From NCBI RefSeq assembly GCF_003352465.1, contig NZ_CP031153.1:546465-610464 (forward strand): a stretch of DNA of 64,000 nt. The letters are read 5' to 3'. Positions 19,155-54,113 of this stretch are shown here, in pieces. The notes under the pieces were generated by a model, which made no database searches, was not told the DNA's origin, and was given only the letters and a program-made list of their open reading frames with translations. The stretch comes from Kordia sp. SMS9. GTDB lineage: Bacteria > Bacteroidota > Bacteroidia > Flavobacteriales > Flavobacteriaceae. The position numbers and the translations under genes were made by a program. How positions within the stretch are numbered: the first letter of the stretch is position 1; each line of letters opens with the position of its first letter.

Positions 19155-19900
19155 TGAAAACAAGAATACTAGAAAAATTAGCAGAAATAGAACGCGATAA
19201 AAATATCGAAATCTTATTCGCTGTCGAATCAGGAAGCAGAGCTTGGGGCTTTGCTTCTCCCGATTCCGATTATGACATTCGTTTTGTGTACAAACACAAA
19301 ACCGAATGGTATTTGAATCTTTGGGAACAAAAAGATACGATTCAATTCATGACGGAAGACGAATTAGACGGTTCTGGTTGGGACATTAAAAAAGCATTAA
19401 AACTGCTCTCAAAATCGAATGCGTCTTTATTGGGCTGGCTCTTCTCTCCTATTGTGTACAGAAGTTCGGGAACGTTCTTGGAAGAAATGAAAATGGTCGC
19501 TGAAAAGAATTTCAATCCTGTTGCAGGTTTCTTTCACTATCACAGCATGAACAAAAATTTTGAAGAAACGTTAGACACCAATGAAATGACTTTAAAAAGT
19601 TATTTCTATACCATACGAACTGCTTTGTGTGCCAATTGGGTTTACAAAAAGGAAACGGTTCCGCCAGTAAATTTTCGTGAATTATATCCGCTTTTAGATG
19701 AGGAATCTAGTGCTCTTTTGGATGAATTAATTCTGCTAAAAAGCAACGAAATTGAAAAAAGTAATGCGCCTGTGGAGGCTTCTTTAATAAATTTGGTAAA
19801 AAGGATTGTTGCAGAAAACAACGAGATCAAAAATGATCTTAAAAACGTGAAACCAAACCCTGAAGATTTTAATACGCTATTTATAAAAACAATACAATGA
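19155..19900 (+). CDS. Pol-beta superfamily nucleotidyltransferase (COG3541-like), paralog 1
   Basis: ESGSRAWGFASPDSDYDIRFVY matches the G[GS]x9-13 D-x-[DE] pol-beta NTase signature. The start is placed at the internal Met MKTRILEK (the ORF track begins at 19016). Its stop overlaps the next gene (ATGA). Confidence 0.6.
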
Positions 19901-20958
19901 CACTCTCAGAACTCAAGAAATCAGGACATATCATCTTTGAATGTATCAGTGGAAGTCGCGCGTACGGATTAGACACGCCAACTTCCGATACCGATATTCG
20001 TGGTGTTTTTGTATTGCCAAAATCCATGTATTATTCACTCGACTATATTGATCAAATTAATGATGAAACGAATGATACTGTATATTATGAATTGCAAAAA
20101 TTCATTTCATTATGCGCCAAAAATAATCCTAACATCTTAGAATTACTGAATGTTTCGGAAGATTGTATTTTATACAAAAATCCGTTGTTTGACAACATTA
20201 AATTAGATACATTTCTATCCAAACAATGCGAAAAATCGTTTGCAAACTATGCGTTTACTCAAATCAAAAAAGCACGTGGATTGGAAAAGAAAATAGTCAA
20301 TCCAATGGAAAAAGAACGCAAATCTGTGTTGGACTTTTGTTTTGTGTATGAAAATGACACTTCCATTCCTTTAAAGGATTTTTTGATTGATAAAAACATC
20401 CAACAAGAACACTGTGGTATTGCAAACATTCCGCATCTAAAAGATTGTCACAACCTATATCACAACGAAAATATTCCCTACAAAGGAATCATCAAAAGTG
20501 AACTTGCAAACGAATTGGCATTGAGTTCTATCCCAAAAGAAGAAACGACAATTGGAATGCTATTTCACAATAAAGACAGTTATTCTAGTTATTGCAAAAA
20601 GTACAAGGAATATTGGAATTGGGTCGAAAAACGAAATGATGAACGTTACAAAACAACGGTTTCTCATGGAAAAAATTACGATTCCAAAAACATGATGCAT
20701 ACGTTTCGTTTGTTGCGCATGGCAAAAGAAATTGCAACTGAAAAAACGATTCACGTAAAGCGCCCAGATCGTGAATTTTTATTAGATGTAAAACATGGAA
20801 AATATGAATATGATGAATTGGTGACTTGGGCAACAGAATTAAAAACAGAATTGGAAAGACTATATGCAAATTCAACATTGCCAAAACGTCCTGATATAGA
20901 AAAAATTAATAATTTACTCATTAACATTAGAACCGATTTTTACACTAAAAACCCGTGA
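19897..20958 (+). CDS. Pol-beta superfamily nucleotidyltransferase (COG3541-like), paralog 2
   Basis: ISGSRAYGLDTPTSDTDIRGVFV is the same NTase signature; it is translationally coupled to its neighbours. Confidence 0.6.
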   Translation: MTLSELKKSGHIIFECISGSRAYGLDTPTSDTDIRGVFVLPKSMYYSLDYIDQINDETNDTVYYELQKFISLCAKNNPNILELLNVSEDCILYKNPLFDNIKLDTFLSKQCEKSFANYAFTQIKKARGLEKKIVNPMEKERKSVLDFCFVYENDTSIPLKDFLIDKNIQQEHCGIANIPHLKDCHNLYHNENIPYKGIIKSELANELALSSIPKEETTIGMLFHNKDSYSSYCKKYKEYWNWVEKRNDERYKTTVSHGKNYDSKNMMHTFRLLRMAKEIATEKTIHVKRPDREFLLDVKHGKYEYDELVTWATELKTELERLYANSTLPKRPDIEKINNLLINIRTDFYTKNP

Positions 20959-21662
20959 ATGCTCTTCAAAACATAGCATATTCCTGTAAAAGCTTCCTTT
21001 CGGAGGAATGGAAAGCAACATATAGCGCGTTTTTACAAAACGAACACTTGTCTGTACTAGCGCGCAATACGTTTGCCTTGTATAAAAATGATGTTGAGAA
21101 ATTTCACGGGAAACCCAATTTTGAAGAAGAAATTATTCCAAATCTCACGGAAGCATTTGCAATCTTTAAAGAACAATTCAAAACTTTAAAAAAGTATAAC
21201 TTTGAAGATAATAAACTAACGCGTAAAGCGTTTGCCACTGCCGTAGAACGGACAAACTTTGAACACATTTTGATACTTTCCGGACAACGATTGACCTCAG
21301 CGAGTTTGCAAGACGAAAACGCAATTCCGCCATTGCAATACGCATTGATGAAACACAGTTTTGAAGCACACAACGATCAAATTTCAAAAGCAGTCCGCGC
21401 TTGGGAAAAACATGCGCAACGCTCTACGGAAAGTTTCTGGGGAACCGTCAAAGGAAGTGCCGAAGACAAAGAAAAATATGTACAAAAATTGATAACACAC
21501 ATCCTAAAACACAAAACCTGGTGGAATGTATTTACACATTACAAACACGAAGTTGTATATGAAGCTAGAATTGCAAGCGGACACGGAATTCGCTGGAAAA
21601 AAGCTACCTTAGAACTCATCGGATTTTTAGAACCTTTTGAAGATTTTGACAATGGAACATAA
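20955..21662 (+). CDS. Hypothetical protein
   Basis: ORF track; overlapping start/stop with neighbours suggests the same operon. Confidence 0.45.
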   Translation: MNALQNIAYSCKSFLSEEWKATYSAFLQNEHLSVLARNTFALYKNDVEKFHGKPNFEEEIIPNLTEAFAIFKEQFKTLKKYNFEDNKLTRKAFATAVERTNFEHILILSGQRLTSASLQDENAIPPLQYALMKHSFEAHNDQISKAVRAWEKHAQRSTESFWGTVKGSAEDKEKYVQKLITHILKHKTWWNVFTHYKHEVVYEARIASGHGIRWKKATLELIGFLEPFEDFDNGT

Positions 21663-23019
21663 CGAACAAACCTATAATTTTTCGCAACAAGAATGGGAAA
21701 CGTGCTTAAAAGTATTGCATGCGCTCAAAGAAAATCCGTTTGAAAATCCAGATAACAAACAATTTGGAACACTCATCACGAAGATTTCTAAAAAGGCAAA
21801 AAAGGCAAATCGGAAAGATACATTTTCAACCAAAAGACAAGAAGATTTAGAAACGATCTTACATAGTGAAATCTCTAAAAATGCTTTGCAAAACAAGACC
21901 ATTTATCAAGACGAAAAAAAATCGCAACACTCGTTTACAAAACTGAATGTTCCAAAAAATTGTTATTGCTGTAATACTTCGTTCACTTTTGCACATTCGT
22001 TCTACAACCGTTTGTGTCCAACCTGCGCTGAACTCAATTATGAAAACCGGTTCAAAAATCTCGATCTATCAAATCGCAAGGTAATCTTAACAGGCGGACG
22101 TGTAAAAATTGGCTATGCAACAGCGTTGAAAATGCTACGTTTTCATGCACATGTAACGGTAACAACACGTTTTCCTGCAACTGCTTTAGACTTATTTCGC
22201 CAAGAAAAAGATTATGAATCTTGGAAAGATAACTTAGTCATATACGGATTGGATTTACGAAATCTAAAATCGGTTGAAAACTTCATTCACTATTACAAAA
22301 ACACACACAAAACGCTCGATATTCTCATCAATAATGCAGCGCAAACGATCAAATATACCGACCAATACTACACACCATTAATTGCGAGAGAACAACAATT
22401 GGCATTAGAATTTTCTGGTCAGCAAAACTTAATCGCGAATGAAACACCTGTGGCGAATGTGAAATTATTGAACAATCATGTAGAAAAAAGTTTCTTGGAA
22501 CTCAATCGTTTTGGACAACCTATTGACACTCGTTCAAAAAATAGCTGGAATGCTACTTTGGAAGAAATCTCCATGCAGGAATTGATTGAAGTCAACTTGA
22601 TCAATCAAATTTCGCCGTACTTTATCATCAAAGAATTGTTGCCATTGTTGAAAAATTCTAGCTTTCCTAAAAAACACATCATCAATGTCACTTCTTCGGA
22701 AGGACAATTCAGTTACAACAACAAAACTATGTTTCATCCGCACACCAATATGACCAAAGCGGCTTTAAACATGATGTCGTTAACCGCGGCAAAAACCTTT
22801 GAAAAAGATAACATTTACATGAACGCTATAGATGTTGGTTGGGTTTCTACAGGAGCAAACGAAACCTTACGAAAACAACAATTTGAAAAAGGATACATTC
22901 CGCCACTTGATCCTGTGGATGGCGCTTCAAGAATCGTACATCCTATCTATGAAAATGAAGAAAACAATACTATCTTTACAGGAAAGTTATTAAAAAACTA
23001 CTGTATTGTAGATTGGTAA
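21637..23019 (+). CDS. SDR-family oxidoreductase with N-terminal Cys4 zinc-ribbon-like extension
   Basis: Rossmann TGGrvkIGyAtA motif plus a downstream NNAAQ; the N-terminal region has CYCC...CPTC. Confidence 0.65.
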   Translation: MKILTMEHNEQTYNFSQQEWETCLKVLHALKENPFENPDNKQFGTLITKISKKAKKANRKDTFSTKRQEDLETILHSEISKNALQNKTIYQDEKKSQHSFTKLNVPKNCYCCNTSFTFAHSFYNRLCPTCAELNYENRFKNLDLSNRKVILTGGRVKIGYATALKMLRFHAHVTVTTRFPATALDLFRQEKDYESWKDNLVIYGLDLRNLKSVENFIHYYKNTHKTLDILINNAAQTIKYTDQYYTPLIAREQQLALEFSGQQNLIANETPVANVKLLNNHVEKSFLELNRFGQPIDTRSKNSWNATLEEISMQELIEVNLINQISPYFIIKELLPLLKNSSFPKKHIINVTSSEGQFSYNNKTMFHPHTNMTKAALNMMSLTAAKTFEKDNIYMNAIDVGWVSTGANETLRKQQFEKGYIPPLDPVDGASRIVHPIYENEENNTIFTGKLLKNYCIVDW

Positions 23020-23034
23020 AAGCTAAAAGATACA

Positions 23035-23109
23035 GCAGTAGTTCAAAAGAGTTGGAAGAACACTACCTTGCAAAGGTAGAGGATGCGGGTTCGAGTCCCA
23101 TTTACTGCT
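23035..23109 (+). tRNA. tRNA-Cys(GCA)-like
   Basis: Acceptor GCAGTAG/TTACTGC, anticodon arm CTACC-TTGCAAA-GGTAG (anticodon GCA), T-loop GGGTTCGAGTCCC. The T-stem has one mismatch and the D-arm is atypical. Confidence 0.45.
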
Positions 23110-23149
23110 CTTTAAAAACAATAATAAGAAATTTTGATACGCAAAGATT

Positions 23150-23410
23150 GATGGTTTAATTGGAAGAACACCTAGCTCATCACTGGAAGTGCGAGTTCAA
23201 ACCTCGCTCAATCTTTGCTCAAAAAACGGCAGTGATAGTAGCTCAATTGGAAGAGCATCTGCTCAACCAGCAGAGGGTTTTGAGTTCAAATATCAAGTAT
23301 TGCTGCCTATTAAAAATCATTACGAGAGTTGGTAGTTTAACTGGAAGAACACCTGGCAACCACTCAGGAAGTGCGAGTTCAAACCTTGCGCAACGCTCGT
23401 ATCACAATGG
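23150..23410 (+). pseudogene. Three degenerate tRNA-like repeats (paralogous to flanking tRNAs)
   Basis: Units share D-arm-like GGTTTAAYTGGAAGAACA and a perfect T-arm GCGAGTTCAAACCTCGC. Anticodon arms and acceptor stems pair poorly and carry 4-nt extras between the T-stem and the acceptor strand. Confidence 0.4.
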
Positions 23411-23412
23411 CA

Positions 23413-23485
23413 ACGGTAGTAGCTCAGTTGGAAGAGCGCATGCCTGTCACGCATGAGGTCGCGGGTTCGAATCTCGTTTACTGTT
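23413..23485 (+). tRNA. tRNA-Asp(GUC)
   Basis: D-arm GCTCAGTTGGAAGAGC, anticodon arm CATGC-CTGTCAC-GCATG (GTC), T-loop GGGTTCGAATCTC. The acceptor pairs with two G-U wobbles. Confidence 0.6.
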
Positions 23486-23507
23486 GCCTATTTAAAAAAA
23501 GAAACAC

Positions 23508-23732
23508 ATGAAATACGCATTAGAAAAAACCACCAATACACATATTTTGGAAGCCGAAAACATAAAAGTTCGCCATACAGTTGGTAGTACGCAAGTATTA
23601 CAAATTGAAGGTGAAGGAATGGTGTCACATGGAGAACACGGAATTATAAAAACAGACAGTAAATATGTGATTAAGTATGTGCAACAAGAATTTAATCCTG
23701 TAACACGCATCATTGAAAATGCTTTTGATTAA
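23508..23732 (+). CDS. Hypothetical small protein
   Basis: ORF track; 74 aa; directly upstream of the 676-aa ORF. Confidence 0.3.
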   Translation: MKYALEKTTNTHILEAENIKVRHTVGSTQVLQIEGEGMVSHGEHGIIKTDSKYVIKYVQQEFNPVTRIIENAFD

Positions 23733-23744
23733 GAGTTTAGGATC

Positions 23745-25775
23745 GTGAAAACCATAAAAATACATACTGAAGAAGATATTTCAAAAATCACGGAAACGGA
23801 TACTATTCGATTAGAAATATATCTAAAAAATGCTGTAATCCCCATTCAGGAAATGAGTGGCGAATTGTACGTACGCGCTGTTGGTTGTAAATTTCCAAAC
23901 TTAACAACCGTTTTCGGATTGGTTTCTTTAGATGCGCATAAAGCGGAATTGCCAAAACTCACAGAAATTCAAGGAAATTTGAACATTCATGGGAATGATA
24001 TTTTACTTCCTGAATTAAGCAAAATATTAGGTGATTTTAAACAACATCATCCTGTAGAATTACCCAAACTCAAAATAATCACGGGAAAATCCAATGTGCC
24101 AAAAAGTTGTATCCCAAAAAAATGGCAACGTGTTCTTTTTCAAAAGGATTTAGATATCTTGGAACAAGGCGAATTATACAATCTTAGTATAGAAAATTGT
24201 AATGTTACTTTGCGTAGTCATGTAATTTATGGAAACTTGAAAACTATCAATGCAAAAGTAAACTGTCCTAACTTAGAAACAATTTATGGTGATTTCACAC
24301 TTGAAATCTCTGATAAATTCAGTAATTATACAGCAAAACCAAGCTTAAATTTTGATGACATTGAAAGTGGAAAAGCAGCAAGTCTTTTTGAAAGTCCCAA
24401 GCTTAAAACAATTCATGGAAGCTGTGAAATCAACACAACAAAACCTATAAATATTGATGTTGAAAACGTTAACGATAGAATTGAAATTCAAAAAGGAAAA
24501 GCTTCTTTTAGAAAACTTCTTAAAACGGGAGCGCTAATTGTAAGAGAAAAATCAAAAATGGTTTGTGATGCGCTCACAGAAACAACAAAGAAACTCGTAA
24601 CGCACCAAGAAAGTTACCTAAGTGCAAAATCACTCTATAAAATTGGAAAACATTGTGGTATCGGTTCCAAAATTGATATTCCGAATTTACTTTTTATTCA
24701 GGGAGATTTATCTTTAAGCCAACGCAATTATAATGATCCAAAAATTAAGCATGAATTCAAAAGTCTAAAATATATAGGTGGAAAAATAACGTTTGATGAA
24801 TTCTGCTCATTTCCTAAATTAGAAGAAGTAAAAGGTGTTTGCAACATAAGAATGTTAAAAAACATCTCTGCTGCAACAGCACCAAAATTAACGTATATAG
24901 ATACCTTAGATATTGGTGAACAACAAAATTCTCGAATTAGAGAACGACTTCCAAGTCTGCAAAAAGTAGGAACAATGATGTATCAAGACAATACTGAACA
25001 TCTAGTTATTGATCATTTTTTTCATACTATAGAAAATCGAAATACAAAATTCATCATCTCAAAGGAATCTTTCTCAATATGGAATAGTTTAAGTGAAGAT
25101 AAATTACCTATACAAAGACTAATTGCTATTTTAAAAATGCGTCATATTTCTTTTGATAATTTTTACACACGTGAAGTGACTCGCGAATGGAAGTATGAAA
25201 GCAATCCGTCTTTTGATGAAATAATTCGTTCCATCAAAAAGAAATGGAAAAAGGTTACGCCATTAACGTATGAAGATATATTTCAACTTCATGACTTTTC
25301 TTTGCGAAGATTTGCGTTTAACTATGTTGGTGTAGACACTTTTATGCAAAAACTAAAAGCAAAACGAATTGCTACAGAAGGAATTGAAGTCAATCATATT
25401 CAATATGATGAATTAGGAAATAAAAAAATGGTGCAAAAACACAACGTTTTTGAAATTTACGAAGCCGATTTTAACAAAGTGGAACACTTTAGATCTTGGC
25501 GCGGAGAAAAACAATTGCGTTATGCTGTAAAATGTTGGTGTACTTCTACCCATCAAGAACATTGGATTTGGATTGAAGAAGCATACAAGAATGATCCACT
25601 TTCTGCGATTGCTTCTACATTTCGCGTGCATGAAAATGTGATTCCATATATTTCTTGTCTAAAGCGTCAAGGAGATATTTTATTATGTGAAATGAAACGA
25701 AATGTACGACCTGAAGGAACAATTAGAGCCTTAACCAAAGAAGAATATTTTGGCCTGCTTGTTGCAGAATCCTAG
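23745..25775 (+). CDS. Hypothetical 676-aa protein with leucine-rich-repeat-like N-terminal half
   Basis: ORF track; repeated LPKLxEIxGNLNIxGN-type units; no signal peptide. Confidence 0.55.
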   Translation: MKTIKIHTEEDISKITETDTIRLEIYLKNAVIPIQEMSGELYVRAVGCKFPNLTTVFGLVSLDAHKAELPKLTEIQGNLNIHGNDILLPELSKILGDFKQHHPVELPKLKIITGKSNVPKSCIPKKWQRVLFQKDLDILEQGELYNLSIENCNVTLRSHVIYGNLKTINAKVNCPNLETIYGDFTLEISDKFSNYTAKPSLNFDDIESGKAASLFESPKLKTIHGSCEINTTKPINIDVENVNDRIEIQKGKASFRKLLKTGALIVREKSKMVCDALTETTKKLVTHQESYLSAKSLYKIGKHCGIGSKIDIPNLLFIQGDLSLSQRNYNDPKIKHEFKSLKYIGGKITFDEFCSFPKLEEVKGVCNIRMLKNISAATAPKLTYIDTLDIGEQQNSRIRERLPSLQKVGTMMYQDNTEHLVIDHFFHTIENRNTKFIISKESFSIWNSLSEDKLPIQRLIAILKMRHISFDNFYTREVTREWKYESNPSFDEIIRSIKKKWKKVTPLTYEDIFQLHDFSLRRFAFNYVGVDTFMQKLKAKRIATEGIEVNHIQYDELGNKKMVQKHNVFEIYEADFNKVEHFRSWRGEKQLRYAVKCWCTSTHQEHWIWIEEAYKNDPLSAIASTFRVHENVIPYISCLKRQGDILLCEMKRNVRPEGTIRALTKEEYFGLLVAES

Positions 25776-26460
25776 ATATCAATAGGGTTAGAATAATTAT
25801 AAATAACACCCAAAATTTGGAAGAAACCCTATAAAAATGACATATTTGCCACACTAATGACAAAAAACTATTTACATATAGCCTCAATTTGCCTGAAAAG
25901 TCAGGACACAAATCGCGGAATGGTTGAACCATTTTGGCGAAACGAGACGCTTTATGTACATTTTTATCAGTGAAGTTTATGATGAAATAACACAAAAATT
26001 ATACAAATAGTAAAGCGTCCAAGGAATTGGGCGCTTTTTTTATGAAAAAAAATTAAAAAATGTTCAAAGCATAATCAAATAGAAACATAAAAGGTTGAAA
26101 CAAAAAGCAATTGAGAGACAGACAGTTGGCAAAAAGTTCAATATCCGTTGCATAACGGACAGGAATTCCCATATCTAAATCTAAACATAACTACTTGATT
26201 ATCAATAAAATAAATTTAAAAAAATTTGTGTAATCAAAAAATCGTTTTCATATTTGCAACGTCAAAAACAAAAAACGACAATATAAAAAACATCATGAAA
26301 TATACGATACATCACATATCCGCCTTAGCAAACATTCTCCGATCACTGGAAAATTGCAGCTTGTTTGTTTGGGAACAGAAGGGAGATTTTATGTATAGAA
26401 AAAAATGGGAGTATGATAAAGATACGTTACTATGATCGTAACTATATAGAAACTTTATAA

Positions 26461-26492
26461 AAGCATCTCCCAAAAAAGAGATGCTTTTTTTA
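26461..26492 (+). terminator. Rho-independent terminator
   Basis: GCATCTC...GAGATGC hairpin followed by a T-run, immediately before the tRNA array. Confidence 0.6.
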
Positions 26493-26513
26493 TGGTTTTT
26501 ATTTAACAAAAAA

Positions 26514-26588
26514 TGATGCATAGCTTAGTTGGTTAGCCCAGAGGCGCTTTTAACGTCAAGGTCGTGAGTTCGAACCTCACTGCGTCAA
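26514..26588 (+). tRNA. tRNA-Lys(UUU)-like
   Basis: Acceptor TGATGCA/TGCGTCA, anticodon loop CTTTTAA, T-arm GTGAG-TTCGAAC-CTCAC. The anticodon stem has a mismatch. Confidence 0.5.
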
Positions 26589-26594
26589 CAAAAA

Positions 26595-26681
26595 GGAAGA
26601 GCAAGCCAATTGGCGGTGGCCACGGTCTTGAAAACCGTTCGGAGTTAATGACTCGTGTGGGTTCGACTCCCACTTCTTCCG
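26595..26681 (+). tRNA. tRNA-Ser(UGA), type II
   Basis: Acceptor GGAAGAG/TTCTTCC, anticodon arm ACGGT-CTTGAAA-ACCGT, long variable arm, T-arm GTGGG-TTCGACT-CCCAC. Confidence 0.6.
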
Positions 26682-26691
26682 CAACTAATTT

Positions 26692-26778
26692 GGAGTGTAG
26701 GTAAATATTGGTTCGTTACGCTTGACTGCTAATCAAGTCCGTTTAACCGCGGTGAAGGTTCAATTCCTTTGCGCTCCG
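26692..26778 (+). tRNA. tRNA-Ser(GCU), type II
   Basis: Acceptor GGAGTGT/GCGCTCC (G-U wobbles), anticodon arm CTTGA-CTGCTAA-TCAAG, long variable arm, T-loop GGTTCAATTCC. Confidence 0.55.
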
Positions 26779-26787
26779 CAACATATT

Positions 26788-26914
26788 GGGGATATAGTTT
26801 ACCAAGCTAAAACAGTGGGTTTAACTCGATGATACCTATTTGATATTATGGTCTCATTGAATTCGCAAGCTTATTTGCTTCTCGCAGCACGGAGTGCAAG
26901 TCTCCGTATCTCCA
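26788..26914 (+). other. Oversized (127-nt) tRNA-like element
   Basis: Good acceptor GGGGATA/TATCTCC, D-arm GTTT-ACCAAGCTA-AAAC and T-like arm CGGAG-TGCAAGT-CTCCG, but ~50 extra nt in between with no clean anticodon arm. The T-loop has G at position 55. Confidence 0.35.
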
Positions 26915-26920
26915 CAACAT

Positions 26921-26992
26921 GATATTATAGCTCAATGGCAGAGCAAAGACCTGTTAAGTCTGAGGTTGAAGGTTCGAATCCTTCCGATATCG
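26921..26992 (+). tRNA. tRNA-Asn(GUU)
   Basis: D-arm GCTCAATGGCAGAGC, anticodon loop CTGTTAA, T-arm GAAGG-TTCGAAT-CCTTC. 3' end ...CGATATC-G-CA. Confidence 0.6.
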
Positions 26993-26996
26993 CAAC

Positions 26997-27069
26997 GACA
27001 AGGTGGCTGAATGGCAAAGGCAGCAGTCTGCAAAACTGTTTTGTATGAGTTCGAATCTCATCCTTGTCT
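26997..27069 (+). tRNA. tRNA-Cys(GCA)
   Basis: Acceptor GACAAGG/CCTTGTC perfect, anticodon arm GCAGT-CTGCAAA-ACTGT, T-arm ATGAG-TTCGAAT-CTCAT. Confidence 0.65.
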
Positions 27070-27117
27070 CAATGATTATGTAGTATCAAACTTGTTTGAA
27101 TAGTATATAATTTACTT

Positions 27118-27200
27118 GGAAGTGTTGAGAAATTGGTTGGCTTGCCAGACTGTAAATCTGGTCTCTTCGGAGCGTGTAGGTTCGAGTCCTACTACTTCCA
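27118..27200 (+). tRNA. tRNA-Tyr(GUA), type II
   Basis: Acceptor GGAAGTG/TACTTCC, anticodon arm CCAGA-CTGTAAA-TCTGG, long variable arm, T-arm GTAGG-TTCGAGT-CCTAC. Confidence 0.65.
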
Positions 27201-27206
27201 CAACAC

Positions 27207-27278
27207 ACGCTTGTGGTGTAACTGGTAGCATGTACGTCTCCAAAACGTACGGTTGAGGTTCAAATCCTTGCGGGCGTG
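27207..27278 (+). tRNA. tRNA-Trp(CCA)
   Basis: Anticodon arm TACGT-CTCCAAA-ACGTA, T-loop GGTTCAAATCC. The acceptor pairs with two G-U wobbles. Confidence 0.55.
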
Positions 27279-27282
27279 CAAA

Positions 27283-27440
27283 ATATAGCTATGGTGTAAT
27301 GGATAGCACATGAGATTTAGCTCACATGTTATTCATTATAGATTAAGCAGTTCGTGAATGTGAAAACATTTCTAACCTCATAGTCTAAGTTCGAAATGCT
27401 TTGCATTCATGAGTTCCTATTTATTAAGATAAGAACAAAA
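27283..27440 (+). pseudogene. Degenerate tRNA-Arg-like 5' half followed by ~100 nt of unassigned structured sequence
   Basis: Starts ATAGCTATGGTGTAATGGATAGCACA (same acceptor/D-arm as the tRNA-Arg at 27888), but the anticodon arm is broken and no intact T-arm/acceptor follows. Only an AAGTTCGAAATGC T-loop-like fragment is present. Confidence 0.35.
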
Positions 27441-27467
27441 CGAACTAATCTTAGTAGCTATACAAAT

Positions 27468-27539
27468 AGTATCGTGACTCAACGGTAGAGTGCTCGACTG
27501 TCTCTCGAGAAGTTGCGGGTTCGAATCCCGTCGGTACTG
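27468..27539 (+). tRNA. tRNA-Asp(GUC)-like (pyrimidine at position 37)
   Basis: D-arm ACTCAACGGTAGAGT, anticodon arm CTCGA-CTGTCTC-TCGAG, T-arm GCGGG-TTCGAAT-CCCGT, acceptor AGTATCG/CGGTACT. Confidence 0.5.
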
Positions 27540-27545
27540 CAAAAT

Positions 27546-27618
27546 CTGGGAATAGAACAATTGGCTGTTTACTCGCCTTGGACGCGAGAGGATGTAGGTT
27601 CGAATCCTGCTTCCCAGA
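27546..27618 (+). tRNA. tRNA-Pro(UGG)
   Basis: Acceptor CTGGGAA/TTCCCAG perfect, anticodon arm CTCGC-CTTGGAC-GCGAG, T-arm GTAGG-TTCGAAT-CCTGC. Confidence 0.6.
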
Positions 27619-27709
27619 CGACTAAATCAAAGCAAGCTTGCTTGAATTTGATTTGCAGTGAGGCATAGCAGGAACACTTTGCAAATCCTGCTTCTGAAAC
27701 AAATAAAAT

Positions 27710-27781
27710 GCTCCGTTCGTCTAATGGCTAGGACACCTGCCTTTCGAGCAGATAATAAGAGTTCGATTCTCTTACGGAGTA
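27710..27781 (+). tRNA. tRNA-Glu(UUC)
   Basis: Acceptor GCTCCGT/ACGGAGT, D-arm GTCTAATGGCTAGGAC, anticodon loop CTTTCGA, T-arm AAGAG-TTCGATT-CTCTT. Confidence 0.55.
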
Positions 27782-27787
27782 CAAAAT

Positions 27788-27860
27788 GCAGAGGTGGCGG
27801 AATGGCATACGCAGCTGTCTTAGAAGCAGTTTTTTGAGAGTTCGAATCTCTCTCTCTGTA
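27788..27860 (+). tRNA. Atypical tRNA: anticodon UAG (Leu) on a 73-nt type-I body
   Basis: Acceptor GCAGAGG/TCTCTGT (G-U wobbles), anticodon arm GCTGT-CTTAGAA-GCAGT, 5-nt variable loop, T-arm GAGAG-TTCGAAT-CTCTC. Bacterial tRNA-Leu normally has a long variable arm. Confidence 0.4.
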
Positions 27861-27887
27861 CAAACGCAATCTTGAAAGGAGTGCAAC

Positions 27888-27959
27888 AAGTTTATGGTGT
27901 AATGGATAGCACATTGGCCTACGAAGCCAAGAGTATAGGTTCGAATCCTATTAGACTTA
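27888..27959 (+). tRNA. tRNA-Arg(ACG)
   Basis: D-arm GTGTAATGGATAGCAC, anticodon arm TTGGC-CTACGAA-GCCAA, T-arm ATAGG-TTCGAAT-CCTAT. Confidence 0.6.
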
Positions 27960-27965
27960 CAATAT

Positions 27966-28037
27966 TGATCTGTGGTGTAACGGTTAGCACACGAGACTTT
28001 GACTCTCGGGGAAGAGGTTCGGTTCCTCTCAGATCTA
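27966..28037 (+). tRNA. tRNA-Gln(UUG)
   Basis: Anticodon arm CGAGA-CTTTGAC-TCTCG perfect, T-arm AGAGG-TTCGGTT-CCTCT, acceptor ...GATCTG/CAGATCT. Confidence 0.6.
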
Positions 28038-28041
28038 CTAT

Positions 28042-28137
28042 AGCGATATAGCTTAATTGGTAAAGCACTGGTCTCATAAGCCAGAAGTTGAAATGCCTGT
28101 ACTGAACTTGATTCAGTATCTAAGATTTCTATCGCCA
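28042..28137 (+). pseudogene. tRNA-Met/Ile2(CAU)-like gene whose T-loop is replaced by a ~29-nt palindromic (REP-like) insertion
   Basis: Acceptor AGCGATA, D-arm GCTTAATTGGTAAAGC, anticodon arm CTGGT-CTCATAA-GCCAG, then T-stem GAAAT/ATTTC enclosing GCCTGTACTGAACTTGATTCAGTATCTAAG in place of the 7-nt T-loop. It is a paralog of the intact tRNA-Ile that follows. Confidence 0.5.
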
Positions 28138-28145
28138 CTAAAAAT

Positions 28146-28218
28146 AGTGATATAGCTTAACTGGTAAAGCGTCAATCTGATAAGTTGGCAGATGAAAGTT
28201 CAAATCTTTCTATCACTA
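28146..28218 (+). tRNA. tRNA-Ile(GAU)
   Basis: Acceptor AGTGATA/TATCACT perfect, D-arm GCTTAACTGGTAAAGC, anticodon loop CTGATAA, T-arm GAAAG-TTCAAAT-CTTTC. Confidence 0.65.
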
Positions 28219-28225
28219 CAAAAAT

Positions 28226-28298
28226 GGTGACTTTAGTTTATTTGGTAAAACGCCTCACTGTGAATGAGAGGAACAGGGTTCGATCCCCGAAGTCACCC
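28226..28298 (+). tRNA. tRNA-His(GUG) with encoded G-1
   Basis: 5' GGTGACTT..., anticodon loop CTGTGAA, 3' ...AAGTCACC-C (G-1:C73 pair typical of bacterial tRNA-His). The T-stem is imperfect. Confidence 0.55.
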
Positions 28299-28303
28299 AA
28301 CCA

Positions 28304-28427
28304 GGAATAATGACAGAGTTGGTCAATGCGATGGATTGAAATGAGTTTACGAATTCATCGAAACCTATTTAATAAAATAGAATTCTATGAGATAAACCCA
28401 GAGATATAGGTTCGAATCCTATTTATT
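28304..28427 (+). other. Oversized (124-nt) tRNA-like element
   Basis: Acceptor GGAATAA/TTATTCC perfect and T-arm ATAGG-TTCGAAT-CCTAT, but ~50 extra nt internally, including a GAATTC-centred palindrome; no clean anticodon arm. Confidence 0.35.
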
Positions 28428-28533
28428 CCACAAAAGAAATGTAGTTTAAAATTAAAATAGCGAGCTAGTATCTCGAAGATGCAAGTAAAGTCTTGCCATT
28501 TCTCAAATTAAAAATTAATAAAAACAAACAGTC

Positions 28534-28848
28534 ATGAGACCAGATGTATTACAAAGGTTCTTTTACAGAACTGAAGATTCAGGAAGATTCCTTGTGACTT
28601 CAAAAAGAACAGGAGTCACCTATTTTGTAGAACCAATAGCTACTGGAAAGCCTGCTATTTTATGGGGCGATGTAGATCCAGCTACAAATAAATTGACGGG
28701 AGATTATGGAACTAAAAGAAGAGGCGCCGTTTTGCCAGAAGATTCTCTGATTACTAAGGAGAATGGTTTTCAAAATATTTCCACATTCAAAGGAAGTCCT
28801 TTCGGAGAAATTGATCGCAGAGATCGATTGTATGAAGATAAAATTTAA
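28534..28848 (+). CDS. Hypothetical protein
   Basis: ORF track; 104 aa; between the tRNA array and the RNA ligase. Confidence 0.4.
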   Translation: MRPDVLQRFFYRTEDSGRFLVTSKRTGVTYFVEPIATGKPAILWGDVDPATNKLTGDYGTKRRGAVLPEDSLITKENGFQNISTFKGSPFGEIDRRDRLYEDKI

Positions 28849-28884
28849 TAATAAAAAAGTAATCTGAAAAGATTTAAAAACGTC

Positions 28885-28954
28885 ATTCTGAACTTGATTC
28901 AGAATCTCACTCTACTAATTTTCAATTTATGATGAGAAACCGAATCAAGTTCGG
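28885..28954. repeat. Two adjacent REP-like palindromes (attctgaacttgattcagaat and ccgaatcaagttcgg), opposite orientation
   Basis: 15-nt palindromic cores related by compensatory changes. The same core occurs at 28100-28118 (inside the tRNA-Met-like gene) and at 42354-42372. Confidence 0.6.
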
Positions 28955-29006
28955 CTTGACGAAAATCCAACTTTTTAGGAAATTCTAAAAAAACAAAAAA
29001 GAAATC

Positions 29007-30014
29007 ATGTTTAAAAAATATAATAGTATCGAAAATACCTACCGTGAAAAGGCAACCGAACAAGTATATCTTCACGGGTATGGAAACGATGTATTTGTGG
29101 TACAAGAAAAAGTACATGGCGCTAATTTTTCTTTCATTACGGATGGAGATACAATTAGAGTTGCCAAACGTACATGTCTAATTGCAGAAGATGAAAACTT
29201 CAACAATCACAGATATGTTTTACACAAATATGAAAAAGCAATTACAGGGCTTTTCAAACGTGTAAAGAACGATTTTCCAGAAACAGAAATGATCACTGTT
29301 TTTGGTGAAATTTTCGGAGGAAGCTATCCGCATGCGGAGGTAGAAAAGATCGATGGAATGGTTCGCATTCAAAAAGGTGTTTTTTACAGTCCAGAAAATG
29401 ACTTTTACGCGTTTGATATTTGTATCAATCACACGCAATATCTTGATGTTACCATCGCGAACACATACTTTGAAGCAACAGGAATGTTGTATGCAAAAAC
29501 ACTTTTTGCAGGAACCTTTAGCGAATGTATGGCATATCCAAATGCATTTGAATCAAAAGTTCATGAATGGCTACATCTTCCAAAGATTGAAGACAATGTT
29601 TGTGAAGGAACCATCATCAAACCATTAACTAGCAAGCGTTTTGGAAATGGACAACGTGTTATTTTCAAAAACAAAAACGAAAAATGGTCTGAAAAGTCAC
29701 ATGAAAAACGATCAAGAGTTTCAAAGCCAAGTGCAATAGGAATGCTTTCACATACTGAAAAAGAATTGATGCACACGCTTTTGGGCTACGTGAACGAAAA
29801 TCGTTTGATGAATGTACAAAGTAAGCTTGGAGAGTTTTCACCAAAACAAACGGGAAAAACGATCGGATTGCTTGCCAAAGATGCACTAGAAGATTTTGTA
29901 AAAGATCATGAAAATGATTGGAATAACGTACAAAAAGAGCATCAAAAAGTATTAACAAAAATACTGAACAAAGAAGCAGTTACTGTCGTAAAAAAAGTAC
30001 TTCTTTTTAGGTAA
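29007..30014 (+). CDS. ATP-dependent RNA ligase, T4 Rnl2-like
   Basis: Nucleotidyltransferase motif I EKVHGANF (compare T4 Rnl2 EKIHGTN), motif IV VCEGTIIKP, motif V VIFKNKNEKW; 335 aa. Confidence 0.7.
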   Translation: MFKKYNSIENTYREKATEQVYLHGYGNDVFVVQEKVHGANFSFITDGDTIRVAKRTCLIAEDENFNNHRYVLHKYEKAITGLFKRVKNDFPETEMITVFGEIFGGSYPHAEVEKIDGMVRIQKGVFYSPENDFYAFDICINHTQYLDVTIANTYFEATGMLYAKTLFAGTFSECMAYPNAFESKVHEWLHLPKIEDNVCEGTIIKPLTSKRFGNGQRVIFKNKNEKWSEKSHEKRSRVSKPSAIGMLSHTEKELMHTLLGYVNENRLMNVQSKLGEFSPKQTGKTIGLLAKDALEDFVKDHENDWNNVQKEHQKVLTKILNKEAVTVVKKVLLFR

Positions 30015-30023
30015 TGTAGAAAT

Positions 30024-30060
30024 GACTGTCCAAGCTTCTATTCTTGGACAGTCTTTATAA
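30024..30060 (+). terminator. Rho-independent terminator after RNA ligase
   Basis: GACTGTCCAAG...CTTGGACAGTC hairpin followed by TTTAT. Confidence 0.55.
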
Positions 30061-30142
30061 AAGATACAAACAATGTGTTCAAGTAAAAACAGCCGCAAAC
30101 CAAAACTGTTGGCTGTAGTTAACTTGATATAAAATTAAACAG

Positions 30143-30628
30143 ATGAAAATAACAATGAACAAGTGGCGAAACTTTTCAGGCAAAGTGTTCAATGAACCCA
30201 TAACTACACTTGTTGAGAATGCCATTGTAAAAGAACAAAAAGCTGGTCACAGATTGAAAATCTATGTGGGTTCGGATTCACAAGCCTATAAAACACATGT
30301 AAACTATGGTACTGTCATAGTGATTCTTAGAAAAGGAAAAGGTGGTTTTATGTTTATCAAAAACGAAAAAGGAACCACTAAAATAGGACTAAAAGAGCGT
30401 ATGCTAAGAGAGGTAGCACTATCCGTAGAAACAGCCTACCGCATTTGTGACCTATTGGAAAAATACAATATTGAATTGGAAGTTCATGCAGATATCAATA
30501 CAGACTCAAAATTTGAATCAAATGTGGCACTTAAAGAAGCGATGGGATATATCATAGGAATGGGCTTTGCATTCAAGGCAAAACCGTATGCTTTCGCAAG
30601 TTCTTCTTGTGCAGATAGTATTGTCTAA
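30143..30628 (+). CDS. Hypothetical protein (possibly RNase H-like YkuK/DUF458 fold)
   Basis: ORF track; YVGSDSQ motif is reminiscent of YkuK-family proteins; the assignment is uncertain. Confidence 0.4.
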   Translation: MKITMNKWRNFSGKVFNEPITTLVENAIVKEQKAGHRLKIYVGSDSQAYKTHVNYGTVIVILRKGKGGFMFIKNEKGTTKIGLKERMLREVALSVETAYRICDLLEKYNIELEVHADINTDSKFESNVALKEAMGYIIGMGFAFKAKPYAFASSSCADSIV

Positions 30629-30934
30629 ATAACATTATATCTCTTCTTTTTTAATGAATATTTTAACTGCGCAAAATGAATGCGTAGTACTGTAAAATAT
30701 TTGTTCCCGAAAGAAAAACAGTTGCTAATCAATATACTGTTTATGCAGTTAATCATCCTCGCTACACGTTGATGGTAGCGAGGTTTAATAAAAAAGTATA
30801 AAATCTCGATTATCGAGTTAAAAATATCAAGCGAGTCTTGTTGCGTGTTTCTATATAGCACCATTGTATAAAACGTTGCACAATGTGTATCATGCTTTTA
30901 TATGCAACTCGACTTGGAGGCTTCGGGTTATAGC

Positions 30935-31140
30935 CAAATATAATCCTCCATAGAGAAACATGGGTCATGGGTTCGAATCCCATTCTCGCAAGAGATAGTT
31001 CAGCGGTTAGAACAATGTTTTTGGATGTTGCCGGTTCGAGTCCGGTCAGTAGTTCCGAAAGGGCGGCTATTGTAACTCAATTGGTAGAGTACTACACTTT
31101 TAATGTAGATTGAAGTTCGATTTCTTCTAAAAAAATCACC
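30935..31140 (+). pseudogene. Three tRNA-like fragments (minihelix-like T-arm+acceptor; D-arm+T-arm without acceptor pairing; Lys(UUU)-like D/anticodon arms without acceptor)
   Basis: ATGGGTTCGAATCCCAT flanked by GAGAA/TTCTC; GTTCAGCGGTTAGAAC ... GCCGGTTCGAGTCCGGT; ACTCAATTGGTAGAGT + CTACA-CTTTTAA-TGTAG + AAGTTCGATTTCTTC. None folds into a complete cloverleaf. Confidence 0.4.
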
Positions 31141-31450
31141 AGCCTGTCACGCTGTTAAATTTGACGAAAACGATGTTGCGTGTATCTGCTGAAGTTTCAC
31201 AAGAAACGAACAGCAATTTTGAAGTCACTTCGACATAAAAAGTGCTTACTGATCGCAACTGGAATTTCTTGAAGATCAGATCAAACTAAAAATATAGCTT
31301 TTGTTGTGTTTTGGTGCGATTCCATCCTCAAAAAAGAACAAGTGAACATGAGTAAAATCTTTTATCTCCGTGAACCAGAAATGATACATGTACGTCGTTT
31401 TTAAAACAAAGTAGAATCGCCAGTAATGGCACAAAATTAGAATAGAAATC

Positions 31451-32551
31451 ATGAAACGAGTACGAATTCACACTGGAAAAGTAGGGTTGGTTTTCAAAAA
31501 TGGAAACTACCAAAAAGTTTTGACAGAAGGCACCTATTGGTTAGGCTTCCGCCAGCATGTATTGATCTATAATATTACAGAAAAGTTTCATGCGTCAGTA
31601 GCGAGTGAAATTTTACTGCAAGATGTCACCTTGACAAACATGTTAGACGTAATCGACATTAAAGACAACGAAATTGTGTTGCTTTTTGAAAGAGGAAACT
31701 TTAAAACAGTTTTAGAAGCTGGACAACATTTGTATTGGAAAGGTTTAGTAGAACGAACGTTTACACGAGTTGACTTGAATACAACAGCAATTACAGAAAT
31801 CAACGATAAAAACTTGCTAAACGATTATAAATTAACAAAGTATATACGAACGTTTGAAGTCTTAGAATACGAAAAAGCAATTTTATTGATTGATGACAAA
31901 TTTGAAAAAATTCTAACCTCAGGAATCTATCATTTTTGGCGAAATGCCACTAATATTAAAATTTCAAAAGTAGATATGCGTCAGTTACAATTGGAAATTG
32001 CAGGACAAGAATTGTTAACAAAAGATAAAGCCGCAATTCGAATCAACTTTTACACACAATACAAAGTTACTGATGTTAAAAAAGCAATTTTAGACAACAA
32101 AGACTTTGAGAAGCAACTATACATTGCTATGCAGTTGAAGCTTCGCGCTTTTGTTGGAAACTATACATTGGATGAATTGTTGGATCAGAAAGAAGACATT
32201 GCCAATGCCGTTTTTGAAAACACAAAAGATGCCGCAGAAAACTTAGGAATCAACGTTTTGTATTGTGGTATTCGCGATGTGATTTTAACAGGAGAAATGA
32301 AAGATATCATGAATCAGGTTTTAATCGCACAGAAAAAAGCACAAGCAAACATCATTACACGACGTGAAGAAACGGCTTCCACAAGAAGTTTGCTCAACAC
32401 CGCAAAATTGATGGAAGAAAACGCAATGTTGTATCAGTTGAAAGAGATGGAATATGTGGAGAAAATCGCAGATAAAATTGGCGAAATCACGGTTGCTGGA
32501 AACGGCGGCGTGGTAAAGCAATTAAAAGACATCTTTTCTGTCAACAAATAA
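31451..32551 (+). CDS. SPFH/band-7 (slipin-like) domain protein
   Basis: C-terminal half KAAIRINFYTQYKV...QKKAQANIITRREETAS... is typical of stomatin/HflKC-type SPFH domains. Confidence 0.75.
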   Translation: MKRVRIHTGKVGLVFKNGNYQKVLTEGTYWLGFRQHVLIYNITEKFHASVASEILLQDVTLTNMLDVIDIKDNEIVLLFERGNFKTVLEAGQHLYWKGLVERTFTRVDLNTTAITEINDKNLLNDYKLTKYIRTFEVLEYEKAILLIDDKFEKILTSGIYHFWRNATNIKISKVDMRQLQLEIAGQELLTKDKAAIRINFYTQYKVTDVKKAILDNKDFEKQLYIAMQLKLRAFVGNYTLDELLDQKEDIANAVFENTKDAAENLGINVLYCGIRDVILTGEMKDIMNQVLIAQKKAQANIITRREETASTRSLLNTAKLMEENAMLYQLKEMEYVEKIADKIGEITVAGNGGVVKQLKDIFSVNK

Positions 32552-42183: not shown

Positions 42184-42353
42184 AATATACAAAATTTGGT
42201 ATGATAGCTTTTCCGCAGTGTCGCAATGATTTTTCGTTAAAAATTTTTGAAGCCTTGGAAAAAATTTAGAAAAATTATTGCGGTTGTAGTTTTTCAATAA
42301 CAGAAAAACTACAAACACCTCTGGAAAAATTCCCTTTCTTTTGTTGACGCCTG

Positions 42354-42372
42354 TGCTGAACTTGATTCAGTA
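42354..42372. repeat. REP-like palindrome tgctgaacttgattcagta
   Basis: Same 15-nt palindromic core as at 28100, 28885, and 28940. Confidence 0.55.
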
Positions 42373-42483
42373 TTCTTTGGGAAGGCAAAGAAAACGAAAA
42401 TAAAAAACTGAAAATTGAGCTATGAAACAAATGATTACTTTGAGTATTTCAATTTTTCTTTGAAAGAATTAAATTTATATTAA

Positions 42484-53992: not shown

Positions 53993-54048
53993 TCCAATTA
54001 ATTATAAACAAATATAAAACGTAAATGAAGATTCAGTATTCAAAAATA

Positions 54049-54113
54049 GAGATTCCTGCCTGCGCAGAAATGACAGAGTAAACAGGATGAGATTCCTGCC
54101 TACGCAGGAATAA
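54049..54113. repeat. Two copies of hairpin repeat gagattcctgcct[ga]cgcag[ga]aat
   Basis: Near-palindromic ATTCCTGC-CTGC-GCAGGAAT; a third copy lies at 63577-63599. Confidence 0.6.

Follow-up and report, generated by a model that had tools for sequence, protein, structure and literature searches.

A hairpin repeat in place of the T-loop of an accessory tRNA(CAU) gene in Kordia sp. SMS9

The NTS/SRM repeats and their Ssn nucleases are the closest known system to the repeats described here. Next come repetitive extragenic palindromes (REP sequences), their bacterial interspersed mosaic elements (BIMEs) and the insertion sequence (IS) elements that insert into REP hairpins. Ssn proteins are small single-domain, cd10448-like GIY-YIG nucleases. 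Chenal et al. (2025, Nat Commun 16:2388; PMC11893778) defined the NTS of Neisseria, CGTCATTCCCGCGMAVGCGGGAATCYRG, which contains dRS3, together with a broader class of 'Ssn-related motifs' (SRM). The hairpins, imperfect palindromes of 20-50 nt, are bound, and cut nearby, only as single-stranded DNA (ssDNA), not as double-stranded DNA or RNA, and ssn genes typically have repeats on both sides (SRM-ssn-SRM). The 5' flank GTCAT is critical for cleavage. Extending the NTS loop leaves cleavage intact, so that hairpin loops are permissive sites. Binding and cleavage are known for the Neisseria and Wolbachia enzymes only, and the mobility of the repeats is only speculated on; the text of that study mentions neither nesting of repeats in the loops of other hairpins nor tRNA genes. 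In the REP systems, the elements IS1397, ISKpn1 and ISPpu9/10 insert into REP hairpins (Tobes & Pareja 2006; PMC1525189). The subject of this paper is a hairpin repeat that occupies the place of the T-loop in a tRNA(CAU) gene of Kordia sp. SMS9. The gene lies in a 64,000-nucleotide (nt) stretch of contig NZ_CP031153.1 (positions 546,465 to 610,464), which is called the window and in which positions are counted from the first nucleotide.

It is likely that a loop-directed event at the DNA level replaced the T-loop of this apparently dispensable tRNA gene with a copy of the hairpin repeat, leaving a gene that is most probably non-functional. The tRNA body is readily recognized: the acceptor stem (AGCGATA/TATCGCC, 28042-48 and 28130-36), the D arm (GCTT-AATTGGTA-AAGC, 28051-66), the anticodon arm (CTGGT-CTCATAA-GCCAG, 28068-84, with CAT at 28075-77) and the variable region (AAGTT) are all in place. 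An initial annotation, made from the window alone, had described the acceptor, D and anticodon arms as intact and the gene as a paralogue of the adjacent tRNA-Ile(GAU). The sequence and the Rfam tRNA model bear out the first statement, and alignment bears out the second. The T-stem strands (GAAAT, 28090-94; ATTTC, 28125-29) enclose GCCTGTACTGAACTTGATTCAGTATCTAAG instead of a normal 7-nt loop; the enclosure was correctly seen in that annotation, and its length is 30 nt rather than the 29 nt given there. Together with an altered closing pair (T28094, A28125), the segment stands for G53, the 7-nt T-loop and C61. The Rfam model spans 28042-28137 at 47.2 bits (gathering score 29) and assigns 32 nt to nine T-loop positions; ARAGORN calls a 93-nt tRNA-Met(cat) at 28041-28133. 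By its arms, which are identical to those of an intact orthologue (L008), and by its covariance score the gene is a canonical tRNA. By its T-loop it is not: the 7-nt loop with T54, Psi55, C56 and A58 is missing, and TTCRAMT and the G53-C61 pair are gone.

In the RNA fold the cloverleaf is the minimum-free-energy structure, in which the T-stem has 5 bp and leads through a 4x5 internal loop into an 8-bp hairpin capped by a 5-nt loop. RNA and DNA folds of 28086-28134 alike give the hairpin a 7-8-bp stem and a 5-nt loop (DNA z = -2.8). A long variable arm, which the initial annotation had named as a possible refutation, is ruled out, as the covariance model puts the extra 32 nt in the T-loop. An alternative T-arm within the insert is also ruled out: its loop, ACUUGAU, lacks the T-loop signature, and the 3' acceptor strand follows directly after ATTTC. 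Rfam scans of the window matched no intron family; at a relaxed threshold, matches over the hairpin were at chance level (RefA5, E = 0.27). The features are collected in table 1.

Table 1. Positions and identity of the repeat copies and tRNA genes in the window.
Feature	Positions	Strand	Evidence or remarks
Interrupted tRNA(CAU) gene (Met or Ile2 type)	28042..28137	+	RF00005, 47.2 bits; ARAGORN; alignments A1, A3
30-nt segment within the T-stem	28095..28124	+	Alignment to 8 intact orthologues; RNA fold
23-nt unit of the loop-nested subtype, CCTGTACTGAACTTGATTCAGTA	28096..28118	+	Hairpin core TACTGAA-CTTGA-TTCAGTA, 28100-28118; CYTGTRCTG... in at least 120 metagenome stretches
Intact paralogue tRNA-Ile(GAU)	28146..28218	+	Rfam, 69 bits
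Second interrupted tRNA, tRNA-Phe(GAA)	28304..28430	+	Rfam, 42.9 bits with a 56-nt insertion; alignment A2
Canonical hairpin repeat, CGTCA-TTCTGAA-CTTGA-TTCAGAA-TCTC	28881..28908	+	Flanks match the pan-bacterial consensus
Inverted partner, CGTCA-AGCCGAA-CTTGA-TTCGGTT-TCTC	28934..28961	-	BIME/MITE-like inverted pair with 28881-28908
Second copy of the 23-nt subtype, CCTGTGCTGAACTTGATTCAGTA	42350..42372	+	Part of an intergenic module that is conserved
Two tandem NTS/dRS3-like hairpins, TGTCATTTCTGCGCAGGCAGGAATCTCTA and ATTCCTGCGTAGGCAGGAATCTCA	54047..54111	-	In a 133-nt intergenic region

The locus was compared with its orthologues in 10 Kordia arrays (SMS9 included), which have the common order Gln-Met(CAU)-Ile(GAU)-His-Phe. 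The Met(CAU) gene is a normal 73-74-nt gene in eight arrays, absent in one and interrupted in SMS9 only. Because eight other arrays have the normal gene, the T-loop replacement is specific to the SMS9 lineage. Alignment with related loci had been proposed as a check, and a sequence common to related genomes that lack a separate intact tRNA-Met as a refutation; the outcome favours the initial annotation, in that the insert is not common to the relatives. The eight intact orthologues have the T-arm GAAAG-TTCRAMT-CTTTC and score 69-70 bits in Rfam, so that the SMS9 gene lies about 23 bits lower (about 70 to 47). Measured against these empty sites, SMS9 has lost 9 nt (G53, the loop and C61) and gained 32 nt, with no target-site duplication. 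The remaining tRNA body is identical to that of at least one intact orthologue (L008), and the closing pair of the T-stem has changed from G-C to U-A, which keeps it Watson-Crick. The Met(CAU) genes of the arrays have an A1.C72 mismatch atop the acceptor stem (alignment A3), except that of L137, which has A1-U72; the Ile(GAU) paralogues are fully paired. The mismatch resembles that of bacterial initiator tRNA, but of the three G-C pairs in the anticodon stem only two are present; initiator, elongator and Ile2 are all candidate identities. A search of viral contigs for an orthologue by the anticodon-arm pattern found nothing but an unrelated tRNA-Met, located on a 424-kb contig (L007).

A comparable replacement is found in the neighbouring paralogue of another genome. 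Ile(GAU) is intact in five of the 10 arrays, absent in four and interrupted in L008, a 5.4-Mb Kordia chromosome. The L008 gene (7289-7384) has its T-loop replaced at the equivalent position, GAAAG-CTTGTGCTGAACTTGATTCAGTATCTCAG-TTTC; its T-stem is down to 4 bp, and it falls below report at the Rfam gathering threshold. The SMS9 Met and L008 Ile inserts are homologous. They differ at four to five of about 30 positions, against zero to two differences between the tRNA bodies, which favours two separate events rather than one recent common event.

The inserted sequence is a dispersed repeat. Its core, the 15-mer CTGAACTTGATTCAG, occurs exactly at 28102, 28888 and 42356, and at no place in 100 dinucleotide shuffles of the window (0 expected versus 3 observed). 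A variant at 28940(-), CCGAACTTGATTCGG, has both arms changed and pairing kept. The recurrence of the palindrome and its inverted variant at 28940 had been noted before; the first recurrence, placed then at 28885, is at 28888. The copy at 42350 and the tRNA insert are alike at 25 of 26 nt, GCCTGT[A/G]CTGAACTTGATTCAGTAT, a similarity reaching beyond the palindrome. The inverted pair at 28881-28961 folds as DNA (28876-28964, z = -5.2) and is missing from the orthologous spacers of seven other Kordia, which makes it strain-specific. Its termini are CGTCA...TGACG; the orthologous spacers have diverged too far for a duplication to be defined. Of the earlier suggestion of an element of the REP type or of the MITE type (miniature transposable elements with inverted repeats), the dispersed, REP-like character holds, given the exact window copies, the occurrence in at least 120 stretches elsewhere and the strain-specific inverted pair. 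The MITE part is not borne out for the SMS9 tRNA copy, which is a replacement with no target-site duplication and does not resemble a classical MITE insertion. A reading of the repeat as a promoter (TTGACG...CAGTAT) or an intrinsic terminator was rejected: there is no T-run, the copies lie in both orientations relative to genes, and they are found inside other hairpins.

The remaining copies in the window lie in intergenic sequence. The 42350-42372 unit is part of a module of about 70 nt, ..CTTTCTTTTGTTGAVG-[23-mer]-TTCTTTG-N6-CAAAGAAAA.. (window 42290-42420), which is also present in K. aestuariivivens (L011) and K. algicida (L064) and, more loosely, in other Flavobacteriia (L178, L193, L214, L225). 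The window genes that flank it (radical SAM/DUF3641, rhodanese) occur by tblastn in none of the other module loci; the module could be a small intergenic unit, conserved or mobile. The hairpins at 54047-54111(-) resolve into ATTCCTGC-GTAG-GCAGGAAT and TGTCA-TTTCTGC-GCAG-GCAGGAA-TCTC, and because they are NTS/dRS3-like, a GC-richer branch of the repeat family is evidently also present in SMS9.

The repeat also occurs outside Kordia, in many bacterial phyla. A scan for TNCTGAACTTGATTCAGNAT in one genome per prokaryotic species found at least 120 genome stretches, against about 17 expected by chance for 18 specified bases by our own estimate. The matches listed span Flavobacteriia, Treponema, Patescibacteria, Sphingomonas (67% GC), Rickettsia, Chloroflexi, Armatimonadota and a nanoarchaeon. 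Their aligned flanks give the consensus GTCA-T[N]CTGAA-CTTGA-TTCAG[N]A-TC(T/C)C. Canonical copies are often followed by an inverted partner with different, mutually complementary arms, for example GATTCCGGGTCAAGCCCGGAATGAC. Small GIY-YIG open reading frames (ORFs) of 94-105 amino acids (aa) adjoin the hairpins in L083 (on both sides), L141 and L012, and similar ORFs are present in L028 and L190. In L083, hairpins at 5324(+) and 5686(-) enclose a 105-aa ORF (5359-5676; PF01541, E = 2e-16), which agrees with the SRM-ssn-SRM order of PMC11893778.

The family resembles the NTS/SRM repeats in several respects. Both are short imperfect palindromes, in canonical copies with flanks that are oriented and not palindromic (5' CGTCAT; ATC-Y directly 3' of the palindrome); both occur in numerous copies, often as inverted pairs, in many phyla; and both flank small GIY-YIG genes. 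Hairpins of the NTS-like form ATTCC...GGAAT are present in the SMS9 window as well (54047-54111). The flanks (C)GTCAT and ATC-Y accompany the copies at 28881-28908(+), 28934-28961(-) and 54047-54075(-) and about 116 canonical copies elsewhere. The tRNA copy has GCCTG instead of CGTCA on its 5' side and keeps ...GTATC on its 3' side, and the copy at 42350 has neither flank. There are differences too. The published SRM string HGTCWYN(0-2)YYVSBRHN(0-5)WNVSBRGN(0-2)RNCYNB, which recovered the model NTS sequence as a control, has no match on either strand of the window and none among the 116 canonical CTGAACTTGATTCAG copies. The string requires a GC-rich stem, and the stem of the subfamily is AT-rich. 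By flanks and gene association the repeat behaves like NTS/SRM hairpins; by the published string it is not SRM. With REP sequences, BIMEs, the REP-associated tyrosine transposases (RAYTs) and REP-targeting IS elements it has in common extragenic palindromes, inverted pairs (here 28881-28961), hairpins as insertion targets and an ssDNA-hairpin biology. It differs from REP/RAYT systems in that the associated protein is GIY-YIG rather than a Y1 HUH transposase and the 5' motif is GTCA rather than GTAG. It differs from the REP-targeting IS elements in that the unit landing in loops has only 23 nt and is a hairpin repeat in its own right rather than a transposase-carrying IS.

The tRNA copy belongs to a distinct 23-nt subtype of the family, CYTGTRCTGAACTTGATTCAGTA, with asymmetric arms (TGCTGAA/TTCAGTA, leaving a G.T mismatch) and, on the 5' side, CYTG where canonical copies have GTCA. 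A metagenome scan for CYTGTRCTGAACTTGATTCAGTAT found at least 120 stretches, and nesting was counted in 126 distinct contexts. In 86 of these the 23-mer lies within or beside another repeat hairpin, as in GTCA-TGCTGAA-C[CTTGTGCTGAACTTGATTCAGTA]TTGT-TTCAGCA-TCTC. The GTCA of a host hairpin is found within 14 nt upstream in 77 contexts, and in 66 at exactly 12 nt, the length of GTCA, a 7-nt arm and one further nucleotide. Nine further copies sit beside reverse-oriented hosts, at ..CAAG^TTCAG... The outer arms of the hosts vary (TCCCGGA/TCCGGGA, TCCTGGG/TTCAGGA, TTCTGAA/TTCAGAA) and the inner unit is constant. The four bases after the 23-mer (TTGT, TTGG, TCGT, TTGA or TTAT) are the rest of ordinary host loops; because they complete such a loop, the insertion point can be placed at C^TTGA. 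Flanks of the 23-mer pair in 56% of copies versus 7.5% for random 23-nt gaps in the same loci; a control in which flanks were re-paired among copies gave 36%, a value inflated since most hosts belong to one family. Other hosts are terminator-like hairpins (L163, L238) and long unrelated hairpins (L169, L228, L144/L233).

Two further observations concern the behaviour of the unit. The metagenome contigs L181 and L258 carry a triple nesting, GTCATGCTGAG-C[CCTG TGCTAAA-C[CCTG TGCTGAA CTTGA TTCAGTA]TTGA TTCAGTA]TTGA TTCAGCATC, in which an earlier insert has in turn received the unit in its loop, at the identical point. L006, an IMG/VR viral contig of 54% GC, has at 10573-10597 the identical 27-mer GCCTGTGCTGAACTTGATTCAGTATTC, the CCTGAA...TTCAGG hairpin around it overlapping a gene's start codon. 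Since this contig is unrelated and GC-rich, the unit crosses very different genomes unchanged. It is tentatively proposed, at less than even confidence, that CYTGTRCTGAACTTGATTCAGTA is a minimal mobile module of the Ssn-associated repeats. It would be copied strand-specifically into the loops of extruded ssDNA hairpins, at C^TTGA or ..AAG^TTCA... Its usual hosts would be other repeat copies, in double or triple nesting, with terminator-like hairpins and the T-arms of AT-rich tRNA genes as further targets. Insertion into T-loops was rejected as a general property of the repeat: excision followed by ARAGORN on 149, then 137, copies recovered only the two Kordia tRNA cases. By this count the T-loop appears to be an occasional off-target specific to an AT-rich T-arm, not a preferred site.

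A sequence of events leading to the SMS9 gene can be outlined. (i) The hairpin repeats would act as DNA, not RNA, in line with the ssDNA specificity of the Neisseria Ssn. (ii) The T-arm, as ssDNA, is predicted by the DNA fold to form the hairpin GAAAG-TTCAAAT-CTTTC. (iii) Its 5' stem/loop junction, AAAG^TTCA, would present a site resembling the junction of reverse-oriented hosts (TCAAAG^TTCAGG in L167 and L186). (iv) The T-arm would then be hit as an off-target of the same loop-directed process, by copy-in or by template switching. (v) The resulting tRNA would keep its cloverleaf and lose T54, Psi55, C56 and A58, and hence the elbow formed between D-loop and T-loop. (vi) The loss would be tolerated since the array appears dispensable. 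In both Kordia cases the unit begins right after the 5' strand of the T-stem. On the right-hand side the tRNA junctions, unlike those of nested copies, lack a clean edge; the loop and C61 are missing, and additional bases (TCTAAGA, TCTCAG) are seen. Because of this, the tRNA event may be either the same reaction accompanied by a deletion or a template switch. The contacts T54-A58, Psi55-G18 and C56-G19 make up the elbow, and RNase P, the CCA-adding enzyme and the ribosome make use of it. Because all of the T-loop residues that build it with the D-loop are missing, the interrupted gene is rated as most probably inactive. An insertion-inactivated tRNA and a palindrome that targets a T-loop had been offered as alternatives; they are not exclusive, and the data fit both. 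No report of a REP-like hairpin replacing a bacterial T-loop was found in the literature searched.

Several observations count against a loop-directed origin and a dead gene. Only two of 137 subtype copies lie in tRNAs, both in one paralogous gene pair of one genus. The tRNA copy is without the GTCAT 5' flank needed for Ssn cleavage, tblastn finds no GIY-YIG or ssn-like ORF in the window, and the best 120 homologues include no Kordia entry. In no empty/filled pair does the tRNA have a clean insertion, and the 9 nt lost without target duplication would also fit recombination or template switching instead of transposition. Gene conversion between the adjacent paralogues might have given the two T-loop inserts a common origin. 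The unchanged tRNA body and the closing pair, which stays paired (G-C to U-A), agree with a very recent event and also with continued selection on the RNA. The loss of function is judged from general tRNA biology. Body and closing pair also speak for a rival reading, in which the gene still yields a functional RNA: a tolerated tRNA with an extended T-arm, one that is trimmed and rejoined by Rnl2, RlaP and the RNaseH-like protein, or a tRNA-like non-coding RNA or decoy in an RNA-damage island. The persistence of the cloverleaf as minimum-free-energy fold agrees with such a role. So does the position of the array between RlaP and Rnl2/RNaseH-like genes, where relatives have Ro60/TROVE, and the tRNA-Phe of the same array also carries an insert, at the canonical intron position 37/38. 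Introns of tRNAs include bacterial group I introns in anticodon loops, whose core is about 200 nt or more (RF00028), and archaeal non-canonical introns at bulge-helix-bulge motifs, some of them in the T-loop. The SMS9 gene resembles an intron-containing tRNA in having extra sequence beside otherwise intact arms. Its 30 nt are, however, far below group I size and match no Rfam intron. The fold has a 4x5 internal loop rather than 3-nt bulges around a 4-bp helix, and excision could not restore the T-loop because its nucleotides are replaced, not split. The insert is, moreover, a DNA repeat that also occurs in intergenic and terminator-like hairpins and beside nuclease genes in many phyla; it is absent from eight of nine orthologues and has removed all universally conserved T-loop nucleotides. 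The L008 T-stem has been reduced to 4 bp, and the published Ssn enzyme does not bind RNA (PMC11893778). A functional product is accordingly judged quite unlikely.

A minor but appreciable probability attaches to an origin without any dedicated mobility. Another hairpin copy could have served for ectopic template switching or gene conversion during replication, by quasi-palindrome-type repair at microhomologies such as TGAA.../...ATCT, and nested copies could have arisen likewise. In the tRNA, sequence has been replaced, not cleanly inserted, and no target duplication is present, which agrees with such repair. The insert ends also resemble the abutting sequence (TGAAC/TGAAAG on the left, ATCT on the right), and nested copies lie between direct repeats of arm sequence (TGCTGAAC...TGCTGAAC and TTGATTCAGTA TTGATTCAGCA). 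Template switching would not readily explain why the inner unit is constant while the outer arms differ (TCCCGGA, TCCTGGG, TTCTGAA and others), why the insertion point is nucleotide-exact in 66 of 77 forward hosts, or why same-orientation contexts outnumber reverse ones by 77 to 9. Constant unit, fixed point and orientation bias together make a directed, strand-specific process more likely than sporadic slippage. An assembly error, an adapter remnant or a chance palindrome is extremely improbable. The identical 27-mer in the unrelated viral contig L006 might raise such a suspicion, but hundreds of independent assemblies, made at various centres by various methods, contain the repeat. Its copies vary naturally, with pairing-preserving stem changes, and are associated with specific genes, for which reasons a sequencing adapter or linker was rejected. 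An independent Kordia genome (L008) has the same kind of insert in the paralogue, and none of the 100 shuffles gave a single exact 15-mer copy.

The interrupted gene is a member of an AT-rich array of about 24 tRNA genes on one strand (23032-23488, 26514-28504 and 31066-31135), in a window of 35% GC with its genes likewise ordered on one strand. The neighbourhood is conserved in Kordia (window 19897-32551; L008-L010, L137). It comprises two RlaP nucleotidyltransferases, a short-chain dehydrogenase (adh_short), the tRNA array, a 104-aa ORF, Rnl2, an RNaseH-like gene (PF04308) and Band_7. The L010 and L137 islands additionally have a Ro60/TROVE-vWA gene followed by a tRNA-like gene. The Rnl2 RNA ligase gene (29007-30014) is 100% identical to an NCBI entry of Kordia sp. 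SMS9 and 79-91% identical to proteins of other Kordia genomes and metagenome assemblies. A large phage, which the one-strand gene order, the GC content and the number of tRNA genes might suggest, was rejected as the source: BLAST of the window against 50,697 phage records gave scattered tRNA-sized matches only, the Rnl2 protein has the identity just given, and the locus is syntenic in Kordia chromosomes. Exact-protein look-ups of window ORFs gave no match. The locus is a bacterial accessory tRNA array within what resembles an RNA-repair or RNA-damage response island that has its own tRNA supply. Gene content varies between Kordia species, and for this reason the array members appear to be individually dispensable. 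In its AT-rich, one-strand tRNAs of variable content beside Rnl2, RlaP and, in relatives, Ro60, it resembles the bacterial and phage tRNA arrays linked to RNA-repair genes. These provide the setting of the finding only; decay of an array member by invasion of a hairpin repeat was not found in the literature searched.

Other members of the array are also unusual. The 56-nt insert of the tRNA-Phe(GAA) gene (28341-28396) lies immediately 3' of the anticodon and replaces nt 37-38. It is strain-specific, the orthologues in L008, L009 and L010 being normal. It folds as a hairpin of its own, with ATGAG at both termini. In L010 (5598-5619) and L009 (5639-5660) the head of the array repeats its first 17 nt together with the TTGAA before them, after an apparent 5' fragment of a tRNA. 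The insert is not a copy of the SRM-like hairpin repeat, and a search of viral contigs gave no match. The first tRNA cluster (23032-23488) contains low-scoring genes (30-45 bits) whose anticodons, Gly ACC and Val AAC, are unusual. The first cluster of relatives has a 74-nt tRNA with a UCA anticodon (L008 3326-3399; L010 2852-2925), called selenocysteine (SeC) by ARAGORN. Degenerate genes and suppressor-like tRNAs are both candidate readings of these genes. Sequences at 28435-28504 (46.1 bits) and 31066-31135 (35.3 bits) are tRNA-like by Rfam and uncalled by ARAGORN; the former has a 6-nt T-loop and a probable AGU anticodon.

The repeat family is already known; loop nesting and T-loop inserts were not found in the literature searched. 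For annotation, the insert explains the low score of the SMS9 tRNA and the missed paralogue of L008, and a large AT-rich subfamily escapes the published SRM search string. For tRNA arrays, the locus documents one way of losing members, and the local consequence for the biology is small if the gene is merely dead. The behaviour of the 23-nt unit, with its constant sequence, fixed insertion point, prevailing host orientation and recursive nesting, is of more interest than the tRNA, which is a minor casualty. On the spread of NTS, SRM and REP-like hairpins, a constant 23-mer at a fixed loop nucleotide, and occasionally in a tRNA T-arm, supplies concrete junctions for tests of mechanism. If the unit is indeed a mobile module, these junctions would give the first evidence, at sequence level, of the way in which NTS/SRM repeats multiply, and invasion of hairpin loops would join the known routes of bacterial tRNA gene loss.

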